Assembly (NCBI GenBank): GCA_963702565.1
Contig: CAVPDE010000029.1
Coordinates: 1,439 to 65,438, forward strand
Source: an uncultured delta proteobacterium
Lineage (GTDB): Bacteria; Desulfobacterota; DSM-4660; Desulfatiglandales; HGW-15
DNA: 64,000 nucleotides
Direction: 5' to 3'
The notes below the pieces were generated by a model, which ran no database searches, was not told where the DNA came from, and worked only from the letters and a program-made list of their open reading frames with translations. Numbering within the stretch: the first letter of the stretch is position 1; every line of letters starts with the position of its first letter. The translations under genes were made by a program, and so were the position numbers. Shown piece by piece: positions 8,130-40,219 of this stretch.

Positions 8130-8283
8130 AAGTGCCTAAAATGTCTAAAGTGCGCTAAAGTGCCTAAAGTTGAAAAGAGAGAATACAGAAGACGGTAGAC
8201 AGAAGAAAGAAGGTGCAAGGCACTCGGTCCAAGGTACACGAAGAGATTTTAGGGCAACTGACAATGGACCACGGACAACTGAC
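8130..8283. repeat. Stack of four different short tandem-repeat arms
   Basis: AAGTGCCTA x4; AGAA(T/G)AC x4; AGGYRCA x4; CAACTGA/CAATGGA x4, between convergent genes. Confidence 0.75.
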
Positions 8284-9426
8284 CTACATTCTTTTCATCA
8301 CTTCCCTGAAGATCACAAGCTTCTGAACGTCCTGAGTGCCTTCACCAAGGGAGGAGGCCCACGCATCCATGGGGAACTTGTGGATCGGGTGTTCCCGGAT
8401 CACGGAAGCAGCGCCGAAAAGATCGGCCGCCCAGAGCGTGACATCCCGGGCAATCTGGACTGCCAGGTATTTGGCAAGAGATGATTCAAGGCGAAAGTCC
8501 TGACCCTGGTCCATGGCCCAGCAGGCTTTGAGCATCATGAGGCGAGCCGCCTCCAATCGTGAGAAAAGATCAGCCGCTTCAAAAGCTTTTCCCTGCTGAT
8601 CCAGGACCGATCGACCGAAAATCTTTCTCTTTTTGCCGTGCTGTACAGCGAGGTCAAAGGCCCCCAGCGCTGTTCCCAGGGTAAGAGCGCTGATGACGAC
8701 TCTGCTGTGCGTGAATATGGAAAGAACCTGCTGCAAACCCCGGCCACGCTCACCCACAAGATGGTCCTCCGGGACGAACACGTTGGAGCACTGAATCCGC
8801 GTCAGGTCGGAAGGAATCCACACTTGTTTGTTTAGCTTGGAGCGGCTCACCCCCTGTGAGCGGAGGTCGACCAGGAACATGGAGATACGGCGATTGCGCT
8901 CTGATTCGGAATCGGACACGGCAGTGAGCATCGCGTAGTCGCTGATAAAGCCGTTCGTTACGTAAGCCTTGGCTCCGTTCAGAACCCACCCGCCATCAAC
9001 CTTCTTGGCTTGCATGGCAATGTTTGCCGAATCGCTGCCCGCCCCGCTTTCGGTGTTGCCGATGCACAGGAGGGTCTTTCCCAGAACCGCTGAAGGCCCA
9101 AACTTTTTCTGAAGAAGCGGGGAACCGAAAAGCCACAGTCCCGTGAGCCCAAGATCTTGATGAGCAAGGACGGCCACGGCAACGCCCGGGGAAATTTTTG
9201 CCAACTCCTCAGCAAAGAGGGCTTCTCTCAGGGCAGTGTTTTTCTTGACCCGGTCTTCTCCAAAGGAGAAATTGAACCAACCCTGTTCGGCCACAAGGGA
9301 AAAAAAGGATTTGGGAACAGCCCCCTGCTCATACCACTGTGACAGGTGCGGCAAGAGGTGTTTATCCAGGAAGGCTTTGAACCTTCCCGTCTCTTCCACA
9401 TTTTGTTTAGGGATTGAAAAATCCAT
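8284..9426 (-). CDS. Acyl-CoA dehydrogenase
   Basis: TESGAGSD, WVLNGAKAYVTNG, RKIFG, GEGTQDVQK; AAGGAGG before ATG 9426. Confidence 0.93.
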   Translation of the reverse strand: MDFSIPKQNVEETGRFKAFLDKHLLPHLSQWYEQGAVPKSFFSLVAEQGWFNFSFGEDRVKKNTALREALFAEELAKISPGVAVAVLAHQDLGLTGLWLFGSPLLQKKFGPSAVLGKTLLCIGNTESGAGSDSANIAMQAKKVDGGWVLNGAKAYVTNGFISDYAMLTAVSDSESERNRRISMFLVDLRSQGVSRSKLNKQVWIPSDLTRIQCSNVFVPEDHLVGERGRGLQQVLSIFTHSRVVISALTLGTALGAFDLAVQHGKKRKIFGRSVLDQQGKAFEAADLFSRLEAARLMMLKACWAMDQGQDFRLESSLAKYLAVQIARDVTLWAADLFGAASVIREHPIHKFPMDAWASSLGEGTQDVQKLVIFREVMKRM

Positions 9427-9708
9427 GCTCCTGCCCTCCTTTTCAAGCATCCCTCTTGAGACATCCTTAAAATGGTGTTATTTTTGACAAACGCAAGTTC
9501 CCAATAGAACCAAAACCTTCCTGACAGCGGTAAGCCGCTTTTTTCTGAGCGAGTGCGGCAAGAATCAGGTGTCGAGCGCAGAAAAATACGTGAATGACCC
9601 CATAGGACTGTGGCAAGAGATAGCGTATTCGGTCGGAATGCCCAAGGATCGCTCTAAAGCTCCAGCATAGGACGAACGGCATAAACCTAAGACAAGGAGT
9701 GTTGTGTC

Positions 9709-10813
9709 ATGCCTAGAAACAAAGTGGATCTTCCCTACCATGTGGAATACCTCTCCATTCTGGACGAGGAGGGGCGCCTGGATCAAGCCCTGGAGCCCAA
9801 GATCCCCGATGACCTCCTGCTCAAGCTCCACCGGGCCATGGTGCTTGGCCGGAGGTTTGACGAAAGATTGCTGAGCCTCCAGAGACAGGGCCGCATCGGG
9901 ACCTTTGCGCCCATTACCGGCCAGGAAGCCTCTCAGCTGGGGGCAGTGGCTCCTCTCATGCCCGGTGATTGGATGGCGCCCTCTTTCAGGGAGACGGCGG
10001 CTCAAATCTACCGGGGGCTTCCCCTGGAAAGCGTCATTCTGGGTTTCGGAGGATACAATGAGGCGGCTTCCCTCGTTAAAGAAGGGAATGATCTGCCCGT
10101 TGCGATTCCTGTGGCCTCCCAGGTGCTGCATGCGGTGGGCCTTGCCTGGGGAATGAAGTACCGCAAGAAACAGAACGTGGTCATGACCTTTTTCGGAGAC
10201 GGCGGTACTTCAGAGGGAGACTTTCATGAAGGCATGAATTTCGCAGCCGTTTACCAGGCGCCGGTGGTTTTCATCTGCCAGAATAACCAGTGGGCCATTT
10301 CAGTGCCGCGGAGCAAACAGACCCATTCCAAGACCATCGCCCAGAAGGCCCTGGCCTATGACATGCCGGGCATTCAGGTCGACGGAAACGATGTCCTTGC
10401 CGTGTATTCCGCTGCGAAAGAGGCCATAGACAGAGCGCGATCCGGGGGAGGACCGTCCCTGATCGAAAACGTGACCTACCGGATGATGATGCACACCACT
10501 GCGGATGACCCGAAGCGCTACCGCAAAGATGAAGAGGTGGAGGGTTGGAGAAAACGGGATCCCATTCAAAGGTTTCAGAAATATCTCAAAGACAAAGGAC
10601 TCCTTTCAGACCAGAAGATCGAGGAGCTGGAAGCTCAAGTGAAGGAGGAAATCCAAAAGGCTGTGGAGCACGCAGAAGAGCTGATGAAAAAGTACAGCGA
10701 ATCCCCTTCACATGTTTGAACACGCCTATGCGGAAATACCGGCTCATTTGAAAGAACAGAAAGAAGAGCTGAAGCGGGAATTGGCCGAAATGCCCAAGTC
10801 CATCGAGTCATAA
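9709..10813 (+). CDS. pdhA: Pyruvate/2-oxoacid dehydrogenase E1 alpha (frameshift ~10700)
   Basis: LQRQGRIG, GQEA, TPP motif GDGGTSEGDFHE...NNQWAIS, HTTADDP; C-terminus PLHMFEHAYAE continues in another frame to TAA 10813. Confidence 0.88.
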
Positions 10814-10927
10814 ATCCGGTGAAGAATTTATTCCCTCAGGACTTGGTACTGAGGGAGCCATTCTTCAGATTTAAAAACGTCGAATAGGACAAAGTATTTG
10901 CGAATCGAAGCACCAAGGAGGAAGACC

Positions 10928-11959
10928 ATGGCTAAGATGACGATGGTTCAAGCACTCAACCTGGCCCTTCGTCAGGAGATGGAAAAGGACGATCGGGTCA
11001 TCGTCCTTGGAGAGGATGTAGGCCGCGACGGAGGCGTTTTCAGGGTGACCGAGGGTCTGATCGATCAGTTCGGAGAGGAGAGGGTCCTGGACACCCCGCT
11101 TGCGGAGTCGGGCATTGCAGGAATGTCAATCGGCATGGCAATCTACGGTCTCAGGCCTGTTTGTGAGATCCAGTTCTCCGGATTCAGCTATTTCTGCATG
11201 CATCAGATCGAAGCTCACGCTTCGCGCATGAGGTGGCGTTCTCAGGGCAACCTGACGGTGCCCATGGTTCTTCGCTGCCCCTATGGCGGCGGCGTACGGG
11301 CGCTGGAGCACCACTCGGAGAGCCGCGAGGCCTTCTGGGCTCACATCCCTGGGCTGAAGATGGTCATTCCTTCAGGACCGCGAAATGCGAGGGCCCTCAT
11401 GATCAGTGCCATCCGCGACCCTGACCCCGTGATCTTCTATGAAGGCAAAGCTATTTACAGGGCGTTCCGGGAGGAAGTGCCCGGAAGCGGAGGAGACTCT
11501 CCCCATCGGCAAGGCCCAACGGATCCTCGAGGGGTAAGGACCTCACGATGATCTCTTATGGAGCCATGATGCGTCCTACGCTGGAGGCAGCCTGCCTTGC
11601 TCAAGGAAAAGGACGGGGTGGAGGCTGAAGTGATCGATCTGCTCACGATTTCTCCTCTGGATGAGGCGACGCTGGTGGAGTCGGTCAAAAAAACAGGCAA
11701 GGCGGTGATCGTCCATGAAGCCCCTCGGAGTTTCGGCCCAGGGGCGGAGATCGCTTCCCGGCTGATGGAAAAGGCCTTTTTCTATCTGGAAGCACCCATC
11801 GCCCGGGTCACGGGCTTTGATGTCGTCATCCCGTTGTTCAGCAAGGAGCAGGCTTACCTGCCGAATGCGCAGAGAATCATAAGGGCTGCCAGAAAGCTTG
11901 CTGAGTCAATAAAGGAGGAGAGTCATGGCAAGAGCGTTCAAACTGCCGGATCTGGGTGA
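10928..11959 (+). CDS. pdhB: 2-oxoacid dehydrogenase E1 beta (frameshifts ~11480-11600)
   Basis: GEDVGRDGGVFRVT, DTPLAESGI, EHHSES, EVIDLLTISPLD, VHEAP. Confidence 0.88.
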
Positions 11960-13217: not shown

Positions 13218-13230
13218 GTTGTTGAATAGA

Positions 13231-13342
13231 AGTGACAAGTGACGAGTAACGAGTGACAAGTTTGTCTTCCTTTCTCGTTACTTGCCCTTCGACTTGGCTC
13301 AGGGCCGTGAGCTCGTCGAACGGTTACTCGTCACTCGTTACT
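13231..13342. repeat. Inverted 7-mer tandem-repeat pair with a nested 39-bp palindromic insert
   Basis: AGTGAC(A/G) x4 (13231-13258); reverse arm CTCGTTA/CTCGTCA is interrupted by CCCTTCGAC...GTCGAACGG (13285-13323). Confidence 0.8.
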
Positions 13343-13379
13343 GAAATGGACGTGCTTCGGATTTCCATGGAGGTGTCCC

Positions 13380-20066: not shown

Positions 20067-20115
20067 AGAGCAGAGAGCGAAGAGCAAAGAGCAAAGAGCA
20101 AAGAGCAAAGAGTAA
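20067..20115. repeat. 7-mer tandem repeat (AGAGCAA)7
   Basis: Seven consecutive units between convergent genes. Confidence 0.85.
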
Positions 20116-20121
20116 AAGCCG

Positions 20122-24171: not shown

Positions 24172-24220
24172 GAATGGAGTGATGGAGTGCTCCAATGCTT
24201 TACGACCAACTGACCCTCTC

Positions 24221-25324
24221 ATGCTTTCGATAGTTATCAGCCTTCTGATCCTGAGCGGGATCGCGGCGCTGCTGGCCCTCTTCCTCGAAATCGCCGACTC
24301 CTATCTGGCCGACTACGGGGAAATGAAGATCCTCGTCAATGAGCAGAAACAATTGGTCGTTGAAGGAGGGAGGCCTTTGCTTTCCACCCTCATGGGCCAG
24401 GGAATTTTCATCCCCTCTGCGTGCGGAGGCAAAGGCACTTGCTCCTATTGCAAAGTGAAAGTTCTGGAGGGGGGCGGCCCGGTGCTCCCCACGGAGACCC
24501 CTTATCTGTCTCCGGATGAACTGAACACTCAGGTCAGGCTTTCATGCCAGGTCAAAGTCAAGGACAACCTGAAGATCGAGATTCCGGAAGAGCTGTTCCT
24601 GGTGAAGGAATACCGGGTCAGGGTGGAAAGTATCCGTGACCTGACTCCGGAGATCAAGAGCATTCGCCTTGCCATTTTATCCCCGGAAGAGGGAATCGCT
24701 TTCAAGGCCGGACAATATGTCCAGTTCGAGGTCCCAAAATACCAGCGCACCAGCGGCCCGGAGTATCGCGCCTACAGCATCTCTTCGGACGCTGGAGATC
24801 ACCATTCCCTGGAACTCGTCATCACCAAGGTTCCTCAAGGAGCCGTGACCACTTACGTGCACGACTTCCTGAAGAAGGGAGAGGATCTAAGAGCCACCGG
24901 ACCCTACGGGAAATTCTATCTGAGGAATTCGGACAGGGACATTCTCTTTATAGCGACCGGGTCGGGCATGGCTCCGATAAAATCCATGCTTCACCAGGTT
25001 GAGCATGAACAAATCCGGAAAAAGGTTCAATTTTTCTTCGGGGCAAGAACACCAAAAGATCTCTACTACCAGGAGGAACTCCTCGCATGGGAGAAAACGC
25101 TCCCTGACTTCAACTATGTGCCCACCCTTTCCCGGCCTCCGGAGGAGGAGCATTGGCAGGGCGAAAAGGGCAGAGTGACCAACCTCATCGACAAACACAT
25201 CCCTGAAGGAGCGAACATCGACGTCTACATCTGCGGGTCGCCGGCAATGATAGATTCGTGCGCGGAGATTCTGAAAAAGAAGAAAATCCCTGAGGACCGC
25301 ATTTTCTTCGATAAGTTCGCATAG
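24221..25324 (+). CDS. nqrF: NqrF-like membrane-anchored 2Fe-2S/FAD/NAD(H) subunit
   Basis: N-terminal TM; SACGGKGTCSYC...RLSCQ; RAYS; GPYG; TGSGMAP; YICGSP; FDKF. Confidence 0.85.
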   Translation: MLSIVISLLILSGIAALLALFLEIADSYLADYGEMKILVNEQKQLVVEGGRPLLSTLMGQGIFIPSACGGKGTCSYCKVKVLEGGGPVLPTETPYLSPDELNTQVRLSCQVKVKDNLKIEIPEELFLVKEYRVRVESIRDLTPEIKSIRLAILSPEEGIAFKAGQYVQFEVPKYQRTSGPEYRAYSISSDAGDHHSLELVITKVPQGAVTTYVHDFLKKGEDLRATGPYGKFYLRNSDRDILFIATGSGMAPIKSMLHQVEHEQIRKKVQFFFGARTPKDLYYQEELLAWEKTLPDFNYVPTLSRPPEEEHWQGEKGRVTNLIDKHIPEGANIDVYICGSPAMIDSCAEILKKKKIPEDRIFFDKFA

Positions 25325-25361
25325 AACCACTTGGCCTTTGGAGTTAACTCATTGTCGTCTA

Positions 25362-25389
25362 TTGACAATCCCGGCCTGCTATATAGATT
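25362..25389 (+). promoter_or_regulatory. Probable sigma70 promoter
   Basis: TTGACA-16-TAGATT upstream of the flavoprotein-kor operon. Confidence 0.45.
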
Positions 25390-25453
25390 TACAACATTGT
25401 TCATTGAATCCTAAACAAAAGCGAAGACCAATCACGAAAACAAGAAGTCAACT

Positions 25454-25662
25454 GCTGTCGGCGAAGCCGACAGCCTGAGGGACAAAGGGGCAGAGGCACA
25501 AAGGCACAAAGCAGCAAAGCAAAACAGGGGACACAGACACACAGGCACAGAGGGAGAAAGCGGAAGACTTCTTTTTTGCGCTTACCCTTTGCATCGTTGT
25601 CCCTTTGTCACTTTGTCCCTTTCTTCTGCTCTGTGCCTATGTGCCTTTGCATCTTTGTGCCT
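25454..25662. repeat. GAA-loop hairpin plus nested inverted 8-mer tandem-repeat arms
   Basis: GCTGTCGGC-GAA-GCCGACAGC; GGCACAAA-type arms at 25479-25519 and 25528-25560; CTTTGTGC-type arms at 25587-25620 and 25629-25662. Confidence 0.85.
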
Positions 25663-28498: not shown

Positions 28499-30268
28499 AT
28501 GGCGAGAGTGGATTTGACCATTGAAATATGCGGGATGTCGGGGGATGGGACCATCGCTGCGGGAGGAATTCTGAACGAAGCCATGTCCAGAGCCGGCCTT
28601 TCCGTGCTTGCCTTTGATTCCTACCCGGCCGAGATTCGAGGGTTCGGCCGTTGCGTCACCCATTCGCGAGTCGGCGATCAGGAAATGAGAGCTTTGAGCG
28701 ACAAAACCCATGTCCTCATTTCCCTGGATGACAAGGAATCTCAGTCGCGGACCCCGTTTCTTGCAAAGGAGGCGGTGGTGCTCTTCGACAGCAAGCCCCC
28801 GTCCTATGTGGAGGAGGGAACCTCCATTGCGGCTCATGTCGAACCTGATGCACGCCTGTTCGGTATGCCTTTATCCGACCTGGCTGCAGCGGCATCCGGA
28901 AGCACGAGGGGCAGAAACCTGGCAGCGCTCGGAGGCTTTGCGGCGATCTTCGGTGTTCCTCCCAGACCTTTCCAGGATGTGATCACGAAGAAATTCAAGG
29001 GAAAAGGTGAAAAGGTCCTCGACGCCAATCTGAAGAGCTTCGACGCCGGATACCGTTACGCCTCAGAGACCTTCAAGGAAAGGGAACGGCCGGCTCTCAC
29101 CTTGCCGGAGCCGGAGAAGGAGGAAAAGATCCTCATTTCCGGAAATGAAGCGGTGGCCCGCGGGGCACTCGATGCCGGCCTCAAACTCTACTTCGGGTAT
29201 CCCATCACCCCGGCGACACCGATCATGGAATACTTGGCTAGGACATTGCCGGAGCGGGGAGGAAAAGTGATGCAGATGGAAGATGAAATCGCTTCCATCG
29301 GCGCAGTGCTGGGGAGCTTCTTCGCGGGAAAGAGGGCGATGACAGCCACGTCGGGCCCGGGGTTTGCCCTGATGACCGAGCTCATCACTCACGGGGTCAT
29401 GTCGGAAATCCCCGCCGTGATCATCAATGCCCAAAGGGGGGGGCCTGCCACAGGGCTGCCGAGCAAAACCGAGCAGTCTGATTTGCAGGCCGCGGTTTTC
29501 GGCGGGCCCGGGGATTCTAGCCGGATCGTCATCGCGCCCACCAATGTGAAGGAGTGCTATGAATTCACCCTGATGAGCTTTCAGCTGGCTGAGCGATACC
29601 AGACGCCGGTCATCGTGCTCACGGACTTTTTTCTCAATAACCGTGTGGAGAAGGTTAAAACCCTTGGGGTATCGGAGGCACAGCGAGCAGACTGGAACCT
29701 CTATCCCGACGAATCAAGCAGGGGCCGATACGAGCGTTACAGAATCACGGAATCCGGAATTTCGCCCAGGGCCATCCCGGGGACAGAGGGGTTTCTTTTC
29801 GACGCTACGGGACTGGAGCACACGGAAAAGGGAAGACCCGATTACTCCTCCGAGATCCATTCGAAGATGACGGAGAAGCGGCATCGAAAGATTCAAGGCG
29901 CTTTAAAGGATCTGCCGGAGCCGCTGGAATTCTCCTCCGGTAAAACCATGGATGTGGGAGTCATCGCCTGGGGATCGACCTTCGGCTCAGCCCTTGAGGC
30001 AGTGTTGACAGCGCAACAGGAAGGCATGAAAGTTGGGGCGTTAAAGGTAACAAGCCTTTTTCCCTATCACGCCGAAGCCATCCGAGCTTTCATGAAAAAG
30101 TGCAAAGCGATCCTGATCCCTGAGCTCAACTTCGAAGGCCAACTGGCCAATCTGATCGGGCATCTGTGCGGAAAAGATGTAGTCAGGCTGAACCGGGCAA
30201 CGGGGATGCCGATGCCATCGAGCCTGATACTTGAAAAGATAGAATCACTGGTGGAGTCAAAAGGATAG
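28499..30268 (+). CDS. korA: 2-oxoacid:ferredoxin oxidoreductase alpha (fused gamma-alpha, KorA-type)
   Basis: GYPITPA, EDEI, ATSGPG, QRGGPATGLPSKTEQSD. Confidence 0.88.
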   Translation: MARVDLTIEICGMSGDGTIAAGGILNEAMSRAGLSVLAFDSYPAEIRGFGRCVTHSRVGDQEMRALSDKTHVLISLDDKESQSRTPFLAKEAVVLFDSKPPSYVEEGTSIAAHVEPDARLFGMPLSDLAAAASGSTRGRNLAALGGFAAIFGVPPRPFQDVITKKFKGKGEKVLDANLKSFDAGYRYASETFKERERPALTLPEPEKEEKILISGNEAVARGALDAGLKLYFGYPITPATPIMEYLARTLPERGGKVMQMEDEIASIGAVLGSFFAGKRAMTATSGPGFALMTELITHGVMSEIPAVIINAQRGGPATGLPSKTEQSDLQAAVFGGPGDSSRIVIAPTNVKECYEFTLMSFQLAERYQTPVIVLTDFFLNNRVEKVKTLGVSEAQRADWNLYPDESSRGRYERYRITESGISPRAIPGTEGFLFDATGLEHTEKGRPDYSSEIHSKMTEKRHRKIQGALKDLPEPLEFSSGKTMDVGVIAWGSTFGSALEAVLTAQQEGMKVGALKVTSLFPYHAEAIRAFMKKCKAILIPELNFEGQLANLIGHLCGKDVVRLNRATGMPMPSSLILEKIESLVESKG

Positions 30269-30269
30269 A

Positions 30270-30378
30270 GATGCAAGTAGCGTGATGCAGGTAGCAGGTT
30301 GCAGGTCGATAAAACCCAAAGACTGATTCTGATGCTTTTTCAACAAGCAACAAGCGACCTGCAACGTGCGGCCCGCAT
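30270..30378. repeat. Inverted 7-mer tandem-repeat pair
   Basis: G(A/T)TGCAG-like x5 (30270-30305) versus CAACCTG-like x5 (30341-30378). Confidence 0.7.
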
Positions 30379-30433
30379 GAAGATAGGTACTATGAAATCA
30401 AGAGTTGTTCATGGATTGTTGCAAGGGTGAAAT

Positions 30434-31234
30434 ATGAAGACATCCGGTAAAGTGCTTGCCGAGCAGGTCAAGAAGATCGAAGAATCAAAGGTGTTTTCGA
30501 TTCGGTCTCCGAACCTGCCGACCTGGTGTCCCGGTTGCGGATACTTCGGGATTCACCAGGGTTTGAACAATGCCATTCAGCGGCTGGAACTCCCTCATCA
30601 CAAGATCGTCGTTGTCTCAGGAATAGGATGCGCAGGACGCTATCCGTTTTTTACAGACACCTACGGCCTTCACACGGTTCACGGACGGACCCTTCCCGTA
30701 TCAACAGGAGTGAAACTCGCGAATCCCGAACTCACCGTATTTGCCGTCGGAGGCGACGGCGACGGTCTGGGGATCGGAGGAGGGCATCTGCCTCACATGG
30801 CGAGAAGGAATGTCGATGTCAAGTACCTTCTCTTTGACAACTCGATCTACGGCCTCACGAAGGGCCAGCCTTCTCCCAGTTCCCCTGTCGGCTTCAAAAC
30901 AAAAGTTTCGCCCCAGGGCAGCCAGGACGCTCCACTGAATGCAACGCTCCTTGCGCTCTCCTACGGGGCTTCTTTTGTCGCAAGGCTTTTTGCAGGAGAC
31001 CCGGAGGGGATTACAAACGCCCTGATCCAAGGCATCCGTCATAAGGGGTTTTCCTTTTTTCATGTGTACACCTCCTGCGTGACTTTTGACAAGGAGTACA
31101 AGACGTGGGACCATCTCAGGCAGTGGGTTCATCCTCTCCCTGCAAAGCACGATCCCGCGGATCGCAAGCAGGCGATCAACGAGGCCCTGGAGGATCAGTT
31201 CAGTTTGGGAGTTTTGTATGAACGACAGGAATGA
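30434..31234 (+). CDS. korB: 2-oxoacid:ferredoxin oxidoreductase beta
   Basis: WCPGCG, SGIGC, HGR, GGDGD, YGLTKGQ. Confidence 0.9.
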   Translation: MKTSGKVLAEQVKKIEESKVFSIRSPNLPTWCPGCGYFGIHQGLNNAIQRLELPHHKIVVVSGIGCAGRYPFFTDTYGLHTVHGRTLPVSTGVKLANPELTVFAVGGDGDGLGIGGGHLPHMARRNVDVKYLLFDNSIYGLTKGQPSPSSPVGFKTKVSPQGSQDAPLNATLLALSYGASFVARLFAGDPEGITNALIQGIRHKGFSFFHVYTSCVTFDKEYKTWDHLRQWVHPLPAKHDPADRKQAINEALEDQFSLGVLYERQE

Positions 31235-31297
31235 TGGAATAATGGATCAAATAAGAAAACAGAATACAGTATCCATAATGTAGAAGAAACCCCTTAT

Positions 31298-31392
31298 CAC
31301 GAAAACACGAAAGTACGAAAGCACGAAAGAAGAAGGGGTTATATAGAAAACCAGGCCCTTTTTCGTGTTTTCCAAATTTCGTGCTTTAGTGG
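31298..31392. repeat. Inverted 8-mer tandem-repeat pair
   Basis: CACGAAA(A/G) x4 (31298-31328) versus TTTCGTG(T/C)-like x4 (31361-31392). Confidence 0.85.
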
Positions 31393-31459
31393 TTGGGTTT
31401 TGTCTTAGAAACTTAGCCCGTACTTCTGAAATCCATGTAGAAAGGATCAAATACAACCA

Positions 31460-33400
31460 ATGGCGAAGAATCTAACTCACCAAATCCTTGAAGCCCATCT
31501 TGTTGAAGGGAAACTCATTCCCGGTGAAGAAATTGGAATCAAGATTGACCACACGCTTCTTCAAGATGCCACAGGCACGGTGGCCATGCTGGAGTTCGAG
31601 TCACTGGGAATTGACTCGGTGAAAGTTGAAGTCGCGGCCCAGTACGTGGACCACAACCTTCTGCAAACCGATAACAAGAATGCCGATGACCACCGCTATC
31701 TTCAAACCGCGTGTGCGCGATATGGAATCCATTTCAGCCCGGCAGGGAACGGCATTTCACACCAGGTTCACATGGAGCGTTTCGGGGTTCCCGGGAAAAT
31801 CATCCTCGGGTCGGACAGCCACACGCCGGGGGCGGCGGGGGTGTCCATGCTGGGCATCGGAGCCGGAGGACTGGACGTGGCGCTGGCCATGGCCGGCCGG
31901 CCTTATTATCTCCCCTGCCCGAAAGTCCTGGGAGTGAAGCTTACCGGAACTCTGCCGGATTGGGTGAGCGCCAAAGACGTGATCCTGGAGATGCTGCGCC
32001 GCTATGATGTGAAGGGGTGCGTCGGCAAAATCGTTGAATACTATGGGCCGGGGGTCAGGAGCTTGTCTGCGACAGACCGGGAAACCATCGGCAACATGGG
32101 AACCGAGCTCGGAGCCACAGGCACCGTTTTCCCCTCCGATGAAAACACCCGTGCCTATCTGGAAGCCCAGGGCAGAGGGGAGGTGTACCGGGAACTTCGT
32201 GCGGACGAAGGCGCTCCCTATGACGAACATGCGGAAATCGATCTCTCCTCTCTCGAGCCGCTGATCGCCTGTCCATCTTCTCCCGGCAATGTAGTCCCTG
32301 TGAGGGAGGTGGCCGGCATCAAAGCAGACCAGGTGATCATCGGAAGCAGTGTGAACTCCTCCTTCCGTGACCTCATGGTGGTCGCCAAGATCTTGGAGGG
32401 CAGGCATCGTCATCCGGACACCTCCCTGCACATCAATCCGGGAAGCAACCAGGTCCTTGAAAATGTTGCGCATGAAGGGGGCCTTGCCTTGCTGCTTCGT
32501 GCCGGCGCGCGCATCCACCAGTCCGGCTGCCTGGGATGCATCGGCATGGGCCAGGCGCCCGGCACAGGGCAGGTGAGCCTCCGCACTTTTCCGCGAAATT
32601 TTCCGGGCCGCTCCGGCACCAAGGATGACCGCGTCTATCTCTGCTCTCCGGAGACAGGAGCCGCGGCGGCTCTTAAGGGGGTGATCACAGATCCCAGGGA
32701 CCTGGGCAAAGAGATGAGCTATCCGAGAATCACAGATCCCAAGAAATATCTCGTGGACAAGGAGTCCATCATTTCGCCCTCAGAGGAACTTCGCAAAACC
32801 GAAGTCGTGAGAGGCCCCAACATCAAGCCGTTGCCGAAGATGGATCCGCTTCCTGACACGCTGGAGGGGGATGTCGTGATCAAGGTAGGCGACAACATCT
32901 CTACGGACACGATCATGCCGGCGGGGAGCAAGGTGCTCCCTCTTCGATCCAACATCGAGGCGATCAGTGAGTTCGTTTTTTACCAGATTGATCCCAAGTT
33001 TTATGAAGCGAGCAAGGAGGCAGGCAGCGTCGTTGTCGTGGGAGGTGAAAACTACGGCCAGGGTTCGAGCCGGGAGCATGCGGCCCTGGCGCCACGCTAT
33101 CTGGGAGTCCGCGTGAAAATCGCCAAGAGCTTTGCAAGAATTCACAAGGCCAACCTGTGCAACTTCGGGATCCTGCCCCTGGTTCTCAAAGACCCCAAAG
33201 ACTATGATCGTTTCAGCAGAGGGTCTCGCGTCGTCCTCCCCGGGGTACGAGCGCTGATTGCGAAGGGGGAAAAGGAAATCCCTGTGGAGGTGAATGGCCA
33301 TCGAGTGATCACGATCCTCGATGTCTCTGAAAGACAGCGCAAACACCTGCTGGCCGGAGGGACGCTGAATGATGTGAAGCAGGAGTTAAGAAGAAACTAA
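31460..33400 (+). CDS. Aconitate hydratase (single-chain, ~650 aa type)
   Basis: QDATG, VDHN, GSDSHT, CLGCIGMG, RNFPGR, NYGQGSSREHA. Confidence 0.93.
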   Translation: MAKNLTHQILEAHLVEGKLIPGEEIGIKIDHTLLQDATGTVAMLEFESLGIDSVKVEVAAQYVDHNLLQTDNKNADDHRYLQTACARYGIHFSPAGNGISHQVHMERFGVPGKIILGSDSHTPGAAGVSMLGIGAGGLDVALAMAGRPYYLPCPKVLGVKLTGTLPDWVSAKDVILEMLRRYDVKGCVGKIVEYYGPGVRSLSATDRETIGNMGTELGATGTVFPSDENTRAYLEAQGRGEVYRELRADEGAPYDEHAEIDLSSLEPLIACPSSPGNVVPVREVAGIKADQVIIGSSVNSSFRDLMVVAKILEGRHRHPDTSLHINPGSNQVLENVAHEGGLALLLRAGARIHQSGCLGCIGMGQAPGTGQVSLRTFPRNFPGRSGTKDDRVYLCSPETGAAAALKGVITDPRDLGKEMSYPRITDPKKYLVDKESIISPSEELRKTEVVRGPNIKPLPKMDPLPDTLEGDVVIKVGDNISTDTIMPAGSKVLPLRSNIEAISEFVFYQIDPKFYEASKEAGSVVVVGGENYGQGSSREHAALAPRYLGVRVKIAKSFARIHKANLCNFGILPLVLKDPKDYDRFSRGSRVVLPGVRALIAKGEKEIPVEVNGHRVITILDVSERQRKHLLAGGTLNDVKQELRRN

Positions 33401-33408
33401 AATACAAC

Positions 33409-33512
33409 TGGAGTATTGGAGTAGTGGAGTAGTGGTAAGAACTGAAAAAAACCCGGTGTACCGCTCTCGGTTTTAACGCAATACTCCAACACTCCATTAC
33501 TCCATCACTCCA
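33409..33512. repeat. Inverted 8-mer tandem-repeat pair
   Basis: TGGAGTA(T/G) x3 (33409-33435) versus CA(A/T)YACTC x4 (33479-33512); a remnant of the same family lies at 24175-24194. Confidence 0.88.
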
Positions 33513-33531
33513 GTCCTTCAAGGAGGTCACC

Positions 33532-34713
33532 ATGGCCCAAGTGGTTAGCGTGAAAAACACGGGATTGCGGGGAATCACGGTTGCCGATACCAAGATCAGC
33601 TTCATTGATGCTGAAAAGGGTGTCCTGATCTATCGGGGCTATCGGATCGAAGAGCTCGCTGAACGGTCAACCTTTATGGAGGTCGCTTACCTGCTCCTGA
33701 ACGGGTCCCTGGCCGGCCCGGAAGAGCTCAATAAGTTCGAGAAAGCTGTGACAGGCGCAAGAGAGGTTCCAACCTATGTGTACTCGTGCATGAAGCACTG
33801 GCCCAAAGGAGCAAAGCCCATGGATGTCCTCCAGGCTTGTGTCCCTGTGCTCGCCATGGCGGACCCGGAACTTGCAGAAGAGAGCAGGGAGGCCAATGTC
33901 CGGATGGCGATCCGGCTGATCGCTCGAGTGCCGGTGGTGGTCGCGGCGTGGCATCGGATCCGAAACGGGTTGGAGCCCCTCGCTTCAGACCCGACCCTTT
34001 CTCACACGGCAAATTTCCTGTGGTCGCTCCACGGGAAAAGACCGGATGCGGAAACGGCCAGAGACCTGGATGTATGTCTCATTCTTCACGCGGACCACAC
34101 GTTCAACGCTTCGACCTTTGCGTGCCGGGAGGTGGTCTCCACCCGGGCTCACATGTATGCTGGGATCGGGGCGGGGATCGGAGCTTTATCAGGAAGCCTG
34201 CACGGGGGCGCCAATGCCGAGGTGATGAAGATGCTCCTGGAACTGGAATCCGAGAAGGACATCCCGGGATGGGTGAAGGCCAGGCTGGACAAAGGAGACA
34301 GGATCATGGGCATGGGCCACGCGGTCTACAAGACCATGGACCCCAGGGCAAGATTCCTCAAGGACATGGCGTTTCGGATAGGCAAAAAGACCGGGCAGAG
34401 CCGGTGGCACGATCTCTCCACGCAAATTGAAACAGCCGGGCTGGAAGAGTTCAAGAAGAGAGGGAAGACGGAGATTCAGCCCAACGTGGATTTCTTCAGC
34501 GCGCCTGTCTACCACATGATGGGCATTCCCAGGGACTTGATGACTCCGATTTTTGCGATCTCCAGAACGGCAGGGTGGTGCAGCCACATCATTGAGGAGA
34601 AATTTGCCGAGGCCCAGGAAAAGCCGGCTCTTTACAGGCCGCAGGCGGAGTACGTGGGGCAGTACTGCGGGCTCATGGGGTGTGAGTACTCTGCTCCTGA
34701 AGAAAGGAAGTGA
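33532..34713 (+). CDS. gltA: Citrate synthase (type I / methylcitrate-synthase-like)
   Basis: LIYRGY, HADHTFNAST, LHGGAN, GMGHAVYK, PNVDF. Confidence 0.92.
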   Translation: MAQVVSVKNTGLRGITVADTKISFIDAEKGVLIYRGYRIEELAERSTFMEVAYLLLNGSLAGPEELNKFEKAVTGAREVPTYVYSCMKHWPKGAKPMDVLQACVPVLAMADPELAEESREANVRMAIRLIARVPVVVAAWHRIRNGLEPLASDPTLSHTANFLWSLHGKRPDAETARDLDVCLILHADHTFNASTFACREVVSTRAHMYAGIGAGIGALSGSLHGGANAEVMKMLLELESEKDIPGWVKARLDKGDRIMGMGHAVYKTMDPRARFLKDMAFRIGKKTGQSRWHDLSTQIETAGLEEFKKRGKTEIQPNVDFFSAPVYHMMGIPRDLMTPIFAISRTAGWCSHIIEEKFAEAQEKPALYRPQAEYVGQYCGLMGCEYSAPEERK

Positions 34714-34727
34714 CTCACCGAAACTCA

Positions 34728-34840
34728 CTTCCCCTCCCCCGGTGGGAGGGGACATAGGGGAGGGGGAAATACGGAGAGTGATAAGTATTGGCAACCTTTA
34801 CCACCCCCACCCTTGCCCTCCCCCATCAAGGGGGAGGAAT
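34728..34840. repeat. REP-like G/C-rich inverted pair
   Basis: TTCCCCTCCCCCGGTGGGAGGGGACATAGGGGAGGGGG ... CACCCCCACCCTTGCCCTCCCCCATCAAGGGGGAGGAA. Confidence 0.7.
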
Positions 34841-34915
34841 TCTTGCGTTGCCGCACTGCCTCTATGGACAGAGTTTTTATGTGGAGCTAAAGCCTCGCAT
34901 TGAAAGGATCTTCCC

Positions 34916-36307
34916 ATGAAGTATCGCATCGAGCAAGACAGCATGGGTGAGGTGAAGGTGCCGGAGGACGCCTACTATGGGGCGCAGACCCAGCGGGCCA
35001 AGGAGAACTTCTCCATCAGCATGCTGCGGTTCCCGCCCTGCTTCATCGAGGCCATTGCTCTGATCAAGAAGCATGCGGCGCAAGTGAATGCCGAGCTCCA
35101 GCTGCTCGATACTCGGCTCAGCCAAAGCATCGTGACCGCGGCCCAGGAAGTTTTTGAAGGCAAGCTCGATGATCAATTCGTTGTGGATGTGTTCCAGACC
35201 GGGTCGGGCACGTCCACCAACATGAATGTCAACGAGGTGATTGCAGGCAGGGCCAACGAACTCCTCACCGGAAAGCGGGGAGGGAAATCGCCGGTACACC
35301 CCAACGATCACGTGAACCTGGGACAGTCGAGCAACGATGTGATCCCCTCGGCAATTCACATCGCCGCTCTTCTCGAAATCAGAAATCAACTCCTCCCTGC
35401 TCTTGATCTGCTTCACAAGGAACTCAAGGAAAAGAGCGACGCCTTTCGCGATATCAGGAAGATTGCCCGCACTCATCTGCAGGACGCGGTTCCCATGACC
35501 TTGGGCCAGGAATTCAGCGGGTATGCGAGACAGGCGGAACTGGGGATCGAGCGGCTGAAGAGGGTCGAGGAGAGGCTCTCGGAACTGGCTCTCGGAGGGA
35601 CCGCTGTGGGGGATGGGCTCAACACCCATCCCGAGTTCGCCTCAAGAGTGATCGAAGCTGTTTCTCGGGAGACGGGAGGTGCCTTTAAAGAGGCAAAAAA
35701 CCATTTTGAAGCTCAGGCGGCTCAGGACGCGGTGGTGGAAACAAGTGGGACTCTGAAGACCATCGCTGTCAGCCTCATCAAGATAGCGAACGACATCCGG
35801 TGGCTCGCGTCCGGACCGCGCTGTGGGATTGGCGAGATTACCCTCCCATCGCTTCAGCCCGGTTCATCGATCATGCCGGGAAAGGTCAACCCTGTCATTC
35901 CCGAAATGGTGCTTCAGGTTGCAGCTCAGGTGATCGGCAATGACGCTGCCATCACCCAGGGAGGACAGGCAGGAAATTTCGAATTGAATGCCATGCTCCC
36001 TCTGATGGCCTACAACCTGATCCAGTCCATTCAGTTGCTCGCTGAAGCGGTGCGAGCGCTGGCGGGAAAATGCGTCAGAGGCATTGAAGTCGACAAAGAA
36101 AGGTGTACTTTGAACTTAGAACAAAGCCTCGCATTGGCCACTGCTTTTGTGCCGGCCATCGGCTATGACAAGGCGGCTTCCCTGGCCAAAGAAGCCTATG
36201 AGAAAAACAAAACCATACGGGAAGTGGCTTTGGAGAATCGGGTGTTGTCTGAAGAGGAGATTAAGAAGATCTTGGATAAGATGGTGGGAAAAGATGAGAC
36301 TCGTTGA
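34916..36307 (+). CDS. fumC: Fumarate hydratase class II
   Basis: QTGSGTSTNMN, HPNDHVN, RTHLQDA, GSSIMPGKVNP. Confidence 0.95.
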   Translation: MKYRIEQDSMGEVKVPEDAYYGAQTQRAKENFSISMLRFPPCFIEAIALIKKHAAQVNAELQLLDTRLSQSIVTAAQEVFEGKLDDQFVVDVFQTGSGTSTNMNVNEVIAGRANELLTGKRGGKSPVHPNDHVNLGQSSNDVIPSAIHIAALLEIRNQLLPALDLLHKELKEKSDAFRDIRKIARTHLQDAVPMTLGQEFSGYARQAELGIERLKRVEERLSELALGGTAVGDGLNTHPEFASRVIEAVSRETGGAFKEAKNHFEAQAAQDAVVETSGTLKTIAVSLIKIANDIRWLASGPRCGIGEITLPSLQPGSSIMPGKVNPVIPEMVLQVAAQVIGNDAAITQGGQAGNFELNAMLPLMAYNLIQSIQLLAEAVRALAGKCVRGIEVDKERCTLNLEQSLALATAFVPAIGYDKAASLAKEAYEKNKTIREVALENRVLSEEEIKKILDKMVGKDETR

Positions 36308-37018: not shown

Positions 37019-37609
37019 CTACTTAAATATGAGTTCCGCCCTTTGCCTCCCAAGTCGTTCCGTGCTGATCTCCATGGCTTTCACAATGAAGTCGATATCG
37101 GCGGCTGCGCTCTTCGGGGTGTCAGGCCTCAGGGCCTCGGTGAGAGCCTTTTCAGCTTTGTTCAGCCGGTTGAGGAAGAGCAGATAGTTCGTGCGGCTCT
37201 TGTAGGCGGACCGTATAAGAGACGGCACATCATGGCCATAGGAACGGAGAAGATCGGCGTAGTGTTCCACCAGTAGCACAAACAGCTCCTTGAAAGGACC
37301 TTTGGCTTTTTCGGGAAGGTTCGAGTCTTTCATAATCGTCTGGAGGTTGGGGCTTCCGGCTTTGTCTACGAAAGAGAGGCTCTCTTCAAGGGCGCGTTTC
37401 CTGGTAATCAGGTAATTCTTGGCAAATCCTTTGCGGCCTTCCACAACCCTTCGGACTCGGTACACGTGGTACAGCAGGAAAATGGGAATAAGGATCATCC
37501 AGAAGCTCATCTTCGGGCTTTCGAGCACCTCTCTGGAAAGATCAAAGGCAAATCGTCCTTCATATTCCAGGATGAGGGCTTTTTTTTCGCTGAGCTTAGG
37601 CAGGGTCAT
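37019..37609 (-). CDS. Conserved hypothetical protein with one TM segment
   Basis: PKMSFWMILIPIFLLY hydrophobic segment; co-oriented with the YeiH operon. Confidence 0.7.
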   Translation of the reverse strand: MTLPKLSEKKALILEYEGRFAFDLSREVLESPKMSFWMILIPIFLLYHVYRVRRVVEGRKGFAKNYLITRKRALEESLSFVDKAGSPNLQTIMKDSNLPEKAKGPFKELFVLLVEHYADLLRSYGHDVPSLIRSAYKSRTNYLLFLNRLNKAEKALTEALRPDTPKSAAADIDFIVKAMEISTERLGRQRAELIFK

Positions 37610-37661
37610 TGTCTATTTCCAGCATGCCTCTGTTCCGAGAGAATCCTTATAACTCAATCTT

Positions 37662-37949
37662 TCACTGCTCTTTGGGGGGGTATTCAAGACTGTTTCTGAT
37701 GGAGTTGACCGCTTCCCCGACTTCCTCGACTCCGGTGTAATAAAAGGCCGGTGTGTTAATCCCTGAATCATCAATAAAGCTGACGGCGGGCTTGATCCAC
37801 GGCAGGTTGTCCACAAAGGGGCCGACAACATAAGTGAGGAACCACAAGGCGGCTATACCAACGCAAAGTTTGAACCAGGATTTGAGACGCCCTGGCGGGC
37901 GCTGAGGCCCGCCGGGGCGCTGAAGGGGATTTTCTTTCTTGCCCCTCAT
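37662..37949 (-). CDS. Small single-TM hypothetical protein
   Basis: Starts 4 bp after the YeiH stop; TM segment followed by IDDSGINTPAFYYT. Confidence 0.7.
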   Translation of the reverse strand: MRGKKENPLQRPGGPQRPPGRLKSWFKLCVGIAALWFLTYVVGPFVDNLPWIKPAVSFIDDSGINTPAFYYTGVEEVGEAVNSIRNSLEYPPKEQ

Positions 37950-37953
37950 GATC

Positions 37954-39714
37954 TCATATCTTTCCGGCTACTTCAGGGAAAATGATGAAGAACATGATGT
38001 ACGCAATCAAAAGCGTGAAGCACAACTGGAAGGCCTGTCCGAACACATACAGGGTGATCGGCTTGCCTCCCTTGAAGTACTGGCCGAACTCGCGGAAATT
38101 GGTCTCCAGCCCGATGGACGTGAAGGCCAAGGCGAAGAACCACTCGCGGAGTAGCCTGCTCCATCCTCTCAGCACGCCCTGATCGATCATGGCGGTGCTG
38201 TATTCCGCACTCACGGAGCCGTCGATGATGGAGAAGATGACGGAGGCGAGCATAAAGCCGATGACAAACTTAGGGAATCTGTACCAGATTTCCCACCAGC
38301 TCACCTGCTGCCCGGGCACGCAATCGACCTTGGCGCACCAATAAACCGCCACGGCGAATGCGATGACACCGATCAGGATGTTCTGAATCATCTTGACCGT
38401 CGCCGCCACATACAGCGCCTTCTGACCGTAGAAAGCACCGGCTGCAGCCACGGCGCCCGTGGAGTCAATGGTGCTTCCCATCCAGGCGCCTGCGAGAATC
38501 TGGTCCATCCCCACCAGCTTGGCAAAGGCCGGCTGGCCCACCATGCAGATAGCGGTGAAGACCATGGAAAGGCCGATGGCAAGGGTGAGTTCCTCTTTCT
38601 TGGCGCGGCAGGCGGCCGCAGTGGCAATGGCTGCCGAGACTCCGCAGACCGACATGTCCGCCGATATGGTGATGTTTAGCGTCTTGGAAGGCATCTTGAC
38701 GATGTGCTGGCCGAACCAGTAGGTCAGGATTAGGGTGATGGGCGTGCAGATCCACGCAATGAAAATCCCCGGCTTCCCGATGGCGAGGATTTTGTTGAAG
38801 AGGATTTCGGCTCCGAGCAGAACGAGGCCCGTCTTAATGTAGTATTCGGTCGAGACAGCCGGCATGACCCACTTCGGTGTTCCCACGGTGTTACTGATCA
38901 GGATACCGAAGATGATGGCCCAGAGAGGAAATCCGAAGCCATAGTGACTCATGGTGGACTGCTGCTCCGCCATGTAAGCGAGCACAGCGAGAGCGAAGAC
39001 GAAAAAGAAGCCCATGAAGAACCGGCCGAAGGATTGGCCCATGACGGCTTTTCCGATACCGAAGAAGAGTCCCAGGATGATGGCCGCTCCAAGAAGGTAG
39101 GGTAATCTATTGTAGGGTTTGTTGCCGACTTTGGCATTGGCCTTGGAAGCCGCGTCCTTGGCCTTCAACCATGCGGCGACCTCGGCTTCGGCTTTCTTGT
39201 TGAGGTCAGCGTTCTTGAAAGCTGCAGCTCCTGCGGCTTTTTCAGCCTCTTTCGCCTTTGCAAGGGCTGCCTCCTGTGCGGCCTTGGCCTTCTCAGCCGC
39301 TTCTTTGAAGGGCGCATTCAGGGCATCTGCCTCAGCCTTGCTTCGGTAAAGGGCGTCAACCGGGTTGCCCTCCCACTTGCTCGGCGCGTTCAGGAACTCC
39401 TGGATGGTTTTGCCGAAGCTTTGATCTCTCGCGCGAATCCTGCTCTTTGAGTCCGAAGCCTGGTGCCACGCGATGGTTTTGAAGGGGGCCTTCGCCGCCT
39501 CCTCTTTCATGGTGGCATTGTACTTGTTGAAATTCTCCTGCATCTTGTCAGGGGGATTCGAGAGATAGATGAAGAGACCTACGATCAGGATGATAAAGCC
39601 CATCCAGATCGCCATCCAATCTTCTTTGGTGTATAAGTCCTTAAGTGACGTTTTCCCGCTCTCGATCACGACATAGTCTTGACCTGCAGAATGGGTACTT
39701 GTTTTGTCAGCCAT
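37954..39714 (-). CDS. YeiH/putative sulfate exporter (PSE) family transporter with Ala/Lys-rich helical insert
   Basis: EDWMAIWMG, EYYIKTGLVLLG, SVCGVSAAIA, TIDSTGAV, VKMIQN; GGAGGA RBS. Confidence 0.9.
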   Translation of the reverse strand: MADKTSTHSAGQDYVVIESGKTSLKDLYTKEDWMAIWMGFIILIVGLFIYLSNPPDKMQENFNKYNATMKEEAAKAPFKTIAWHQASDSKSRIRARDQSFGKTIQEFLNAPSKWEGNPVDALYRSKAEADALNAPFKEAAEKAKAAQEAALAKAKEAEKAAGAAAFKNADLNKKAEAEVAAWLKAKDAASKANAKVGNKPYNRLPYLLGAAIILGLFFGIGKAVMGQSFGRFFMGFFFVFALAVLAYMAEQQSTMSHYGFGFPLWAIIFGILISNTVGTPKWVMPAVSTEYYIKTGLVLLGAEILFNKILAIGKPGIFIAWICTPITLILTYWFGQHIVKMPSKTLNITISADMSVCGVSAAIATAAACRAKKEELTLAIGLSMVFTAICMVGQPAFAKLVGMDQILAGAWMGSTIDSTGAVAAAGAFYGQKALYVAATVKMIQNILIGVIAFAVAVYWCAKVDCVPGQQVSWWEIWYRFPKFVIGFMLASVIFSIIDGSVSAEYSTAMIDQGVLRGWSRLLREWFFALAFTSIGLETNFREFGQYFKGGKPITLYVFGQAFQLCFTLLIAYIMFFIIFPEVAGKI

Positions 39715-40219
39715 GATAGATCCTCCATTATGCTCCTCGACGAGGAGTCCAAGAAAGGAAAGACCAAAGCAAAAACCTCATGAGGCTTCAAAAGATCCGT
39801 AAGCAGACCATTGTCCCCAGCGCTGATCATCACCCCCTTTTGAGACGAGTTTGGTCACGCTCTAAAAAAAGAAGACAATCACGCAGACTACATCATCAAC
39901 TCTGAACTTCATTCAGCTAGAGGTTCAAGGGCCAAGGCCCAAGATGTCAGGCCCGCCAGATATGATTTCTATCTCAGCCAACAAGCTTTTGTCAAGGTTT
40001 TTAAATGGTTATGCGGAAACATGAACCATCGGCTACCAATGAAGGAACAGGTCATGTCCCTCGAAGCGGAAGCGCTCAAAAAGCTTTGAAGGGACAATCG
40101 CAATCCTTGGCGCTGGTGAAGAAGTCCGCTATAATTGGATGGAACCGCTTCGAGGAGAGCGGGAGCCCCTCATGGGAAGGCATGGGGCGCTTCGTTCTTG
40201 GGACCACGGGTTTCGGGCC

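Follow-up and report, generated by a model that had tools for sequence, protein, structure and literature searches.

The window analysed here is a stretch of 64,000 nucleotides from an uncultured delta proteobacterium (assembly GCA_963702565.1, contig CAVPDE010000029.1), in which short tandem arrays of 7-9 bp units, several of them paired as the inverted arms of a hairpin, lie in the gaps between core metabolic genes. We consider it likely that these sites are gene-less, internally deleted copies, resembling miniature inverted-repeat transposable elements (MITEs), and solo-arm leftovers of small palindromic mobile cassettes. An earlier note on the same DNA had read them as empty sites or non-autonomous units of a cassette-mobility system. 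Cassette mobility was supported overall, whereas "empty sites" was not the right term: the window sites appear to hold gene-less derivatives, whereas alleles that are genuinely empty correspond to the tight junctions of relatives. The cassettes form a widespread, transposase-less, palindromic family that is apparently undescribed; in the literature covered, which included few subscription journals, no paper linked genes of PF05635, the family of the cargo described below, to tandem-repeat arms or operon gaps.

A mobile cassette family and its cargo gene

The host genome (G000; 5.23 Mb in 30 contigs, G+C 54%) was compared with two genomes of the same genus, G001 and G002, whose aconitases are 92% and 97% identical to that of the host, respectively. 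The nearest named relatives of the host aconitase are from uncultured Desulfobacteria- or Syntrophobacterales-type genomes, with identities of at most 83%.

In G001, we found a family of about 50 copies with the ends GTAACTNCTCAGGT. The end motif TAACTNCTCAGGT occurred 101 times in G001 and in neither G000 nor G002, and the reversed-pattern control gave 0-1 occurrences. When the flanks of 31 bounded copies were examined, 8-bp duplications were perfect in 15, matched at seven of eight positions in 8 and at six of eight in 4; flanks shifted as a control never matched at more than four of eight. Furthermore, three insertions present only in G001 were copies of this element lying between genes that abut or overlap in G000. 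The G001 family is a proven mobile element, which moved as DNA in a species-specific burst.

The copies of this family differ in length. The 440-bp form carries a four-helix-bundle gene as its sole cargo, another copy has a partial internal deletion by which the 3' half of this gene is gone, and repeat-armed forms of 150-210 bp retain the first 25 nt or so of the gene. These forms thus make up a full series from the gene-bearing cassette to the gene-less hairpin. The earlier idea of non-autonomous units agrees well with this series, as the short forms keep the gene start and make 8-bp target duplications.

Genes of the two presumed cargo families, the four-helix-bundle family (TIGR02436/PF05635) and the GxxExxY family (TIGR04256), were examined. 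Profile searches of the host genome gave nine matches to TIGR02436 and four to TIGR04256. Several of the matched genes were found between arms, among them those of the following three host cassettes, given by contig and position.

C8:12233-12741: four-helix-bundle gene between ATGGAGTA inverted tandem arms
C10:949792-950319: four-helix-bundle gene between CAGTAAG inverted tandem arms
C11, about 53314-53625: four-helix-bundle gene between AAGTGCCTA arms, the unit of window site 8130

The unit family of the first cassette, TGGAGTA, is shared with window sites 33409 and 24174. Sixteen of 21 related genomes contained the four-helix-bundle family, and 76 of the 80 TIGR02436 matches were examined, four low-scoring ones being omitted. 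Inverted arms at a z of at least 5 flanked 47 of the 73 genes with usable flanks, and the arms consisted of tandem units in 44 of these 47. For GxxExxY genes (n = 23), inverted flanks were observed in 16 and direct repeat flanks in 9. The statement in the earlier note that such arms often flank genes of both families was accordingly borne out. Two GxxExxY genes of the host (C18:194119-194630 and C18:344668-345200) lie between direct array-plus-tail copies of 30-40 nt, and one of them has an inverted arm further downstream, a layout unlike that of the four-helix-bundle cassettes with their simple inverted arms.

Gene-bearing cassettes whose arms match or nearly match were found, in the host genome or its relatives, for six of the window's eight unit families. 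The terminal stem surrounds a PF05635/TIGR02436 open reading frame (ORF) in full-length cassettes of the host and its relatives, and the window copies are ORF-less.

We also compared arms and cargo pairwise, a pair of cassettes being regarded as arm-sharing when at least three arm 7-mers were common (34 of 1081 pairs). Mean protein identity was 0.49 in the arm-sharing pairs and 0.30 in the rest, a difference reached in 0 of 2000 label permutations, and all eight pairs with a protein identity of at least 71% shared arms. The arms are co-inherited with the cargo lineage, as the earlier note had supposed in assigning each repeat family to its own cargo gene. The ratio of nonsynonymous to synonymous substitution (dN/dS) was 0.05-0.10 in the five pairs, of nine, whose dS was unsaturated; the cargo is a working gene under strong purifying selection. 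The solved structures nearest to the four-helix-bundle protein, 2RLD and 2GSC, are uncharacterised and have five chains each in the deposit.

The constraint on the arms was assessed with MAFFT alignments. A cassette of G026, a genome from a different family of the same order, was aligned with a host cassette located at an unrelated genomic place. The arms were identical at 24 of 24 and 22 of 24 positions, compared with 42 of 105 third codon positions and 13 of 50 positions in the outside flanks. The arms are conserved beyond third codon positions and flanks; therefore, the arm sequence itself is constrained, not pairing ability alone. A second cassette pair was blurred by repeat register.

Repeat sites of the window and their turnover

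Arrays of the window were called with Tandem Repeats Finder, and RNA folds, taken from 8128, 13228, 20062, 24170, 25520, 30266, 31294 and 33405, were scored as z against 200 shuffles per site. The sites are as follows.

8130-8212: two adjoining solo arrays, AAGTGCCTA x4.4 (8130-8170) and AAGACAG x5.4 (8175-8212), beginning in a convergent gap 4 nt beyond the stop codon of gene 7098-8126; no hairpin (z -0.3)
13230-13342: AGTGACR hairpin (AAGTGAC x4.6 called at 13230) between the pyruvate dehydrogenase E2 and lipoamide dehydrogenase genes; arms 13230-13261 (left) and 13324-13342 (right); -45.4 kcal/mol, z -4.1
20067-20116: AGAGCAA x7.1 solo array, beginning 6 nt past a stop codon in the convergent acetyltransferase/malate dehydrogenase gap; solo arm or remnant, z -1.6
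24174-24200: TGGAGTA-family hairpin remnant between the nqrE-like and nqrF-like genes, made up of ATGGAGTG x2.0 and a short complementary stretch; z -1.7
25478-25660: composite hairpin of the GGCACAAA/GGGACAAA family (AGGCACAA x9.4, degenerate); degenerate left arms 25478-25553, loop 25554-25584, right arms 25585-25660; the fold at 25520, which covers only part of the element, z -1.9
30270-30374: GWTGCAG (GCAGGT) hairpin (GCAGGTA x2.9 called at 30287), starting 2 nt past the korA stop in the korA-korB gap; left arm 30270-30308, right arm about 30341-30374; -35.5 kcal/mol, z -3.1
31228-31246: short array, GGAATAAT x2.4, overlapping the korB stop codon; a weak case
31298-31392: CACGAAAR hairpin (CACGAAAG x4.0) in the korB-aconitase gap; arms 31298-31329 (left) and 31360-31392 (right) around a conserved 31-nt loop, with degenerate AGACAGA-type arms outside; -33.7 kcal/mol, z -5.3
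33409-33512: TGGAGTAK hairpin (TGGAGTAG x3.4) between the aconitase and citrate synthase genes; left arm 33409-33435, loop holding a small hairpin, right arm 33479-33512; -47.3 kcal/mol, z -7.8

About ten sites with 3-7 copies of a unit had been claimed for the window. Tandem units were confirmed at nine of them, with about three or more copies at seven; the low-copy exceptions are 24174, with exactly two copies, and 31228, with 2.4. At 39921, Tandem Repeats Finder gave no array and the sequence was not tandem on inspection. The five sites described as a purine-rich arm, a spacer and a reverse-complement arm all had these arms, and four of the five fold far better than the shuffles (z -3.1 to -7.8). 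The units do differ between sites, as had been stated; nonetheless, each belongs to a large genome-wide family. Relatives of the CACGAAA element with the same loop core, for example, number more than 35 in the host genome. Every array site of the window lies between protein-coding genes and none in a 23S rRNA helix.

The genes flanking the window gaps align with those of G001 and G002 at 77-93% DNA identity, whereas the gaps themselves do not align. The nqrE-nqrF junction, which holds the remnant at 24174 in the host, holds a full TGGAGTA hairpin in G001 (a gap of about 200 nt) and an AGTGACA hairpin in G002. In the gap of the 20067 array, just 2-4 degenerate units followed by unrelated elements were found in both relatives. 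At korA-korB, G002 has the same GCAGGT element with extra units, and in G001 this element is nested within GTCCGTT/AACGGAC arms. Related GAATGGA-type units occupy the 31228 position in both. In the korB-aconitase gap, only the left CACGAAA arm remains in G001, and TGGAGTA hairpins take the place of the element in G002; the aconitase-citrate synthase gap contains a GCAGGT hairpin in G002 and other arrays in G001. The gap of the 25478 element holds a CACGAAA hairpin in G002 and a 3.1-kb insertion with two genes in G001. This insertion (gap orthologous to 25324-25605) encodes a 574-aa flavoprotein-like ORF and a 245-aa ORF. Copies of a repeat that includes GTCATTCCGGCG and CTGGACCCCGGCTT flank the insertion, and this repeat is also found in the mdh-nqrB gap of G002.

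Elements are frequently nested one within another. A 39-nt palindrome with the core GCTCAGGGCCGTGAG lies at 13285-13323 in the right half of the AGTGACR hairpin, and G002 has an otherwise identical AGTGACR element without it. The core occurs seven times in the genome, once inside another AGTGACA hairpin on contig C10.

Subsequently, the comparison was extended to 400 kb of G001 against G000. Of 200 syntenic gaps, 60 held arrays in at least one genome: the same family was present in 11 and different families in 16, whereas arrays were present in G001 only in 26 and in G000 only in 7. The comparison of orthologous gaps proposed in the earlier note thus revealed presence/absence and family replacement, although not clean empty alleles for the window families.

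Variation was also observed within natural populations when contigs of two public DNA runs (X1 and X3) were compared over 28500-35000. In contigs of both runs, the 33409 element was one 8-nt unit shorter, at 33417, and a 10-nt loop replaced 31310-31356 in the 31298 element. In one X3 contig, 225 other letters took the place of 30236-30423, the korA-korB element. In nature, therefore, elements undergo slippage, loop exchange and replacement.

The 7-42 kb part of the window encodes, in order:

pyruvate dehydrogenase E1, E2 and E3; rhodanese proteins; malate dehydrogenase
an Nqr/Rnf-type complex; 2-oxoacid:ferredoxin oxidoreductase alpha and beta; aconitase; citrate synthase; fumarase

Pyruvate dehydrogenase E1 beta (10898-11959) consists of two open frames, 10898-11551 and 11597-11959, and the first matches the N-terminal 184 of 327 profile positions only; a frameshift, an error in the sequence or a disrupted gene could account for the split. 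The minus-strand ORF at 37019-37609 gave a full-length match to the uncharacterised NF038143 (HYxxLL) family (E 4e-56). At 2653-3165, a 69-bp unit is repeated 7.4 times (90% matches) within a minus-strand leucine-rich-repeat ORF (LRR_4, LRR_8). The earlier statement that no such repeats occur at 42-64 kb is correct, Tandem Repeats Finder giving no arrays there. This absence is unremarkable because about 12 of 18 gaps there are at least 20 nt long and arrays occupy 17% of co-directional gaps genome-wide. The 42-64 kb cluster contains one gene block twice (46103-52430 and 58586-63999), with a short-chain dehydrogenase, a fused 2Fe-2S/4Fe-4S/NuoE-like protein, a NuoF-like protein and a molybdopterin (xanthine dehydrogenase family) subunit. 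Beside it are an IclR regulator, 2-oxoacid:ferredoxin oxidoreductase genes and a branched-chain amino-acid ABC transporter, and the region has a high G-over-C skew (0.1-0.25).

Genome-wide arrays and alternative explanations

The genome was scanned for arrays with a period of 6-10 and at least 2.8 copies. Gene calls were made with a home-made ORF scorer, by which the non-coding share, crudely estimated, is 16.5% of the genome. This share contained 747 of the 954 arrays. Periods 7 and 8 dominate, with 389 and 289 arrays, respectively; for period 7, the 389 intergenic arrays compare with 61 in coding sequence, and the intergenic 7-nt units typical of heptamer repeats are thus present. Simulation of four contigs (2.41 Mb) with a third-order Markov model gave 20 array rows against 560 real ones, a 28-fold excess. 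About 88 unit families account for the 747 arrays, 504 of which belong to just ten families, and the copy number per array has a sharp mode near 4.5. There were 154 inverted unit-matched pairs, and the spacer was shorter than 60 nt in 106 of these, compared with 3 of 56 direct pairs. The scan for tandem and inverted repeats that had been suggested earlier therefore found a frequency far above chance. The families are not all of one kind: copies of the CACGAAA, AAATTCG, AATATCG and GGGACAAA families have loop cores in common, in contrast to the TGGAGTA and CAGTAAG copies described below. A separate palindromic element of about 125 nt, with the ends CAGGTTGCTCAAAA and about 40 occurrences by motif count (e.g. 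C10:263311-263495 and C10:278374-278626), in some cases has a tandem-arm hairpin inside it and represents a further small mobile family in the same gaps.

For hairpins in co-directional gaps (n = 89), the median distance from the upstream stop codon to the hairpin was 9 nt, and that from the hairpin to the next called start was 41 nt. Arrays occupy 22% of convergent and 10% of divergent gaps, in addition to the co-directional share given above, divergent gaps thus being used about half as frequently as the other types. The idea that gene junctions are targeted is supported by this spacing after the stop codon, together with the insertions at junctions where the genes of the sister genome abut or overlap.

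According to the earlier note, the purine-rich arm always comes first in the direction of transcription. The order itself was confirmed, as 90 of the 5' arms in co-directional gaps were purine-rich and 4 intermediate, and not one was pyrimidine-rich. However, a purine arm, loop and pyrimidine arm read alike on the reverse complement, and the order is therefore uninformative on transcription. When 123 hairpins of all gap types were read on the plus strand, 104 were purine-then-pyrimidine, 3 pyrimidine-then-purine and 16 ambiguous. Transcriptional polarity was accordingly rejected, by the strand symmetry and by equal counts across the four gap types. The asymmetry is nevertheless real and intrinsic to the elements. 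Pyrimidine-first arms (GTCATTT, GTCCGTT) in relatives occur in a related cassette group (6 of 47 cassettes, proteins 58-81% identical), and polarity therefore looks inherited with the element lineage.

The elements might alternatively be RNA structures kept by the host, acting as 3' stabilisers, terminators or ribonuclease III (RNase III) sites that set the subunit ratios of operons. Their predicted stems are indeed very stable at four window sites, as listed above, and start right past stop codons; furthermore, a related 23S rRNA intervening sequence is cut in vitro by RNase III, as described in the passage on it in PMC4990558. To look for selection on RNA, we aligned the two arms in the 89 co-directional-gap hairpins and counted mismatches that give G:U pairs on the sense or only on the antisense strand. 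No RNA-strand bias was found: 110 sense mismatches were observed versus 109 antisense-only, and 30 versus 29 when counted per element, therefore giving no sign of RNA-level compensation on the transcribed strand. In addition, an Rfam scan of 7-42 kb gave no match, and the elements are replaced rapidly between congeners. Taken together, these results make the RNA-structure explanation improbable. In assembled contigs of two metatranscriptome runs over 28500-35000, the genes were covered, and no contig bridged or ended informatively at a stem. An RNase III gene was not found in G000 with TIGR02191, PF14622 or a tblastn search using the G002 protein, and was present in G001 and G002; the non-detection is probably an assembly gap (completeness 97.8%). 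The arrays were also considered as stop-codon insulators, units of period 7 or 8 placing a stop in every frame; this was discarded, as only 5 of the 12 largest families hold a stop triplet (by eye).

Another explanation is that the paired arrays serve the host as regulatory sites to which a global DNA-binding regulator attaches, as the look-alike pairs of Geobacter metallireducens have been read in the relevant passage of PMC2700814 (IHF/HU-type regulator sites). The conservation of arm sequence well above neutral sites and the sharp peak of unit number at about 4.5, which is expected of a protein-binding array, are in line with this explanation. However, the same family occupied only 11 of the 60 array-holding orthologous gaps, the gaps adjoin unrelated housekeeping genes, one family has about 50 copies with target duplications in one species and none in two congeners, and the arms bracket a small gene of their own. 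We therefore regard regulatory sites as unlikely.

Ordinary microsatellites arising in place by replication slippage would account for the missing 8-nt unit at 33417 in the two DNA runs and for the extra korA-korB units in G002. This explanation, which had been set against the cassette reading from the outset, is contradicted as the sole cause by the excess over the Markov model and by the concentration of the arrays in ten families. Moreover, the prevailing periods are 7 and 8, the copy number peaks sharply instead of tailing off, short-range pairs are inverted (106 versus 3 direct), and entire elements are inserted between abutting genes; slippage by itself is thus highly improbable. Repetitive extragenic palindromic (REP) or bacterial interspersed mosaic element (BIME)-like elements moved by REP-associated tyrosine transposases (RAYTs) are equally hard to credit: eight Y1_Tnp (PF01797) matches are present in the host genome, but the inverted repeats at seven of these genes lack tandem units, show no resemblance to any arm family and have only 1-4 copies each in the genome. 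HUH/Y1 enzymes are not known to leave 8-bp target duplications such as those of the G001 family.

Origin of the window elements and relation to known systems

Taken together, these findings suggest the following course for small palindromic mobile cassettes. A full cassette measures about 0.45-0.55 kb and has two inverted arms, each of about 4-5 tandem copies of a 7-9 bp unit, with short terminal inverted repeats outside the arms in at least one family. Such cassettes would move as DNA and land mostly just past stop codons or exactly between adjacent genes, cutting presumably being performed by a factor acting in trans. The gene would then be lost by internal deletion, and the remaining cassettes would be overwritten by later insertions and drift by unit slippage. 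The window families TGGAGTA, CACGAAA, GCAGGT, AGTGACR, GGCACAAA and AAGTGCCTA presumably moved by the same route as the G001 family. The arms may be binding sites of a sequence-specific protein, possibly the cargo protein, and the stem in transcripts may be tolerated or processed as in rRNA intervening sequences.

Several observations weigh against this explanation. The evidence of transposition comes from a different family in the sister genome; the window families gave neither a target duplication nor a clean empty allele, and their boundaries are fuzzy and nested. No transposase was found, and only four-helix-bundle or housekeeping genes lay between the ends. Ends starting with GTAA and an 8-bp duplication are IS66-like, and IS66 was considered as the mover of the GTAAC-ended family; PF03050 had matches in none of the three assemblies, although drafts often lose insertion sequences. 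Likewise, an autonomous insertion sequence with the same ends was not found in these assemblies, which may have lost it. In TGGAGTA and CAGTAAG, the two largest families, the loops are unrelated between copies and only the arms are common, which copy-and-paste of one master element does not predict. Furthermore, 26 of the 73 four-helix-bundle genes lack significant arms, the cargo-arm pairs are not independent in that some are orthologous loci in related genomes, so that their independence is overstated, and distances to start codons are rough, being based on home-made gene calls.

We tentatively suggest, as a possibility that we consider rather doubtful, that the PF05635 protein is the specificity factor of the element itself, each lineage recognising its own 7-9 bp unit. 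About one unit would be bound per subunit of a pentamer, with about 4.5 units per arm, and the protein, once bound to both arms, would either bring in a nuclease or transposase that is unlinked or belongs to the host, or shield the stem. If this is true, a mobile element would be spreading into gene junctions without any known recombinase of its own, and intergenic heptamer repeats and ORF-bearing rRNA intervening sequences would be one phenomenon.

MITEs and mobile insertion cassettes are transposase-less elements moved in trans. The elements described here resemble MITEs in having terminal inverted repeats (in five window elements and at the G001 ends), many copies and no transposase, in the target-site duplications and the derivation of short forms from longer ones by internal deletion seen in the G001 family, and in the many dispersed non-coding copies (504 arrays in ten families). 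In contrast to MITEs, no parent insertion sequence with the same ends was found, the longer form holds a conserved non-transposase gene, and the arms are tandem arrays that co-vary with the cargo gene.

The helix-45 23S rRNA intervening sequence of Coxiella burnetii, which bears the S23p ORF, is a further counterpart (PMC4990558). As far as the passages on it go, it likewise has a PF05635 four-helix-bundle gene in the loop of a long inverted-repeat stem, a size of about 0.43-0.5 kb, and a sporadic distribution suggesting horizontal spread, and both are regarded as selfish. Unlike such intervening sequences as portrayed there, the present elements lie between protein-coding genes, have arms of tandem 7-9 bp units and are mostly gene-less; DNA-level insertion with 8-bp duplications was found here, in one family, and RNase III cutting is described for the intervening sequence.

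In Geobacter metallireducens, classes 1-3 of "global regulator binding sites" are opposite-strand pairs of 3-5 tandem 7-9 nt units (PMC2700814). Like the present elements, they have a variable distance between arms, are intergenic (e.g. proB-proA) and occur in one species but not in its congener (PMC2700814). In the passages concerned, these sites are read as regulator sites without a link to cargo or mobility (PMC2700814), and the likeness is one of description.

TAACTGA heptamers of Beggiatoaceae, Cyanobacteria and Bacteroidetes are similarly tandem 7-nt units, nearly all intergenic, near gene ends and patchy across phyla; according to the passages on them, however, they are direct repeats just upstream of start codons, with one inverted pair in 170 sets, and are read as translational signals (PMC4679880). 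In contrast, the arrays found here hug stop codons, form inverted pairs and are part of gene cassettes. The short tandemly repeated repetitive (STRR) sequences of heterocystous cyanobacteria are intergenic heptamer repeats of a similar kind. The passages on the intervening sequences, the Geobacter sites and TAACTGA (PMC4990558, PMC2700814 and PMC4679880) do not connect repeats, cargo gene and mobility.

Three puzzles may have one cause: the intergenic heptamer and octamer repeats found from cyanobacteria to Geobacter, the function of the widespread PF05635 proteins and the spread of ORF-bearing intervening sequences. If the cassettes belong to a single mobile family, a large part of the structured, hypervariable intergenic DNA found in many uncultured bacteria would be their debris. 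This would bear in practice on the prediction of operons and small RNAs, on assembly, in which contigs break at the repeats, and on strain typing by presence or absence at junctions.

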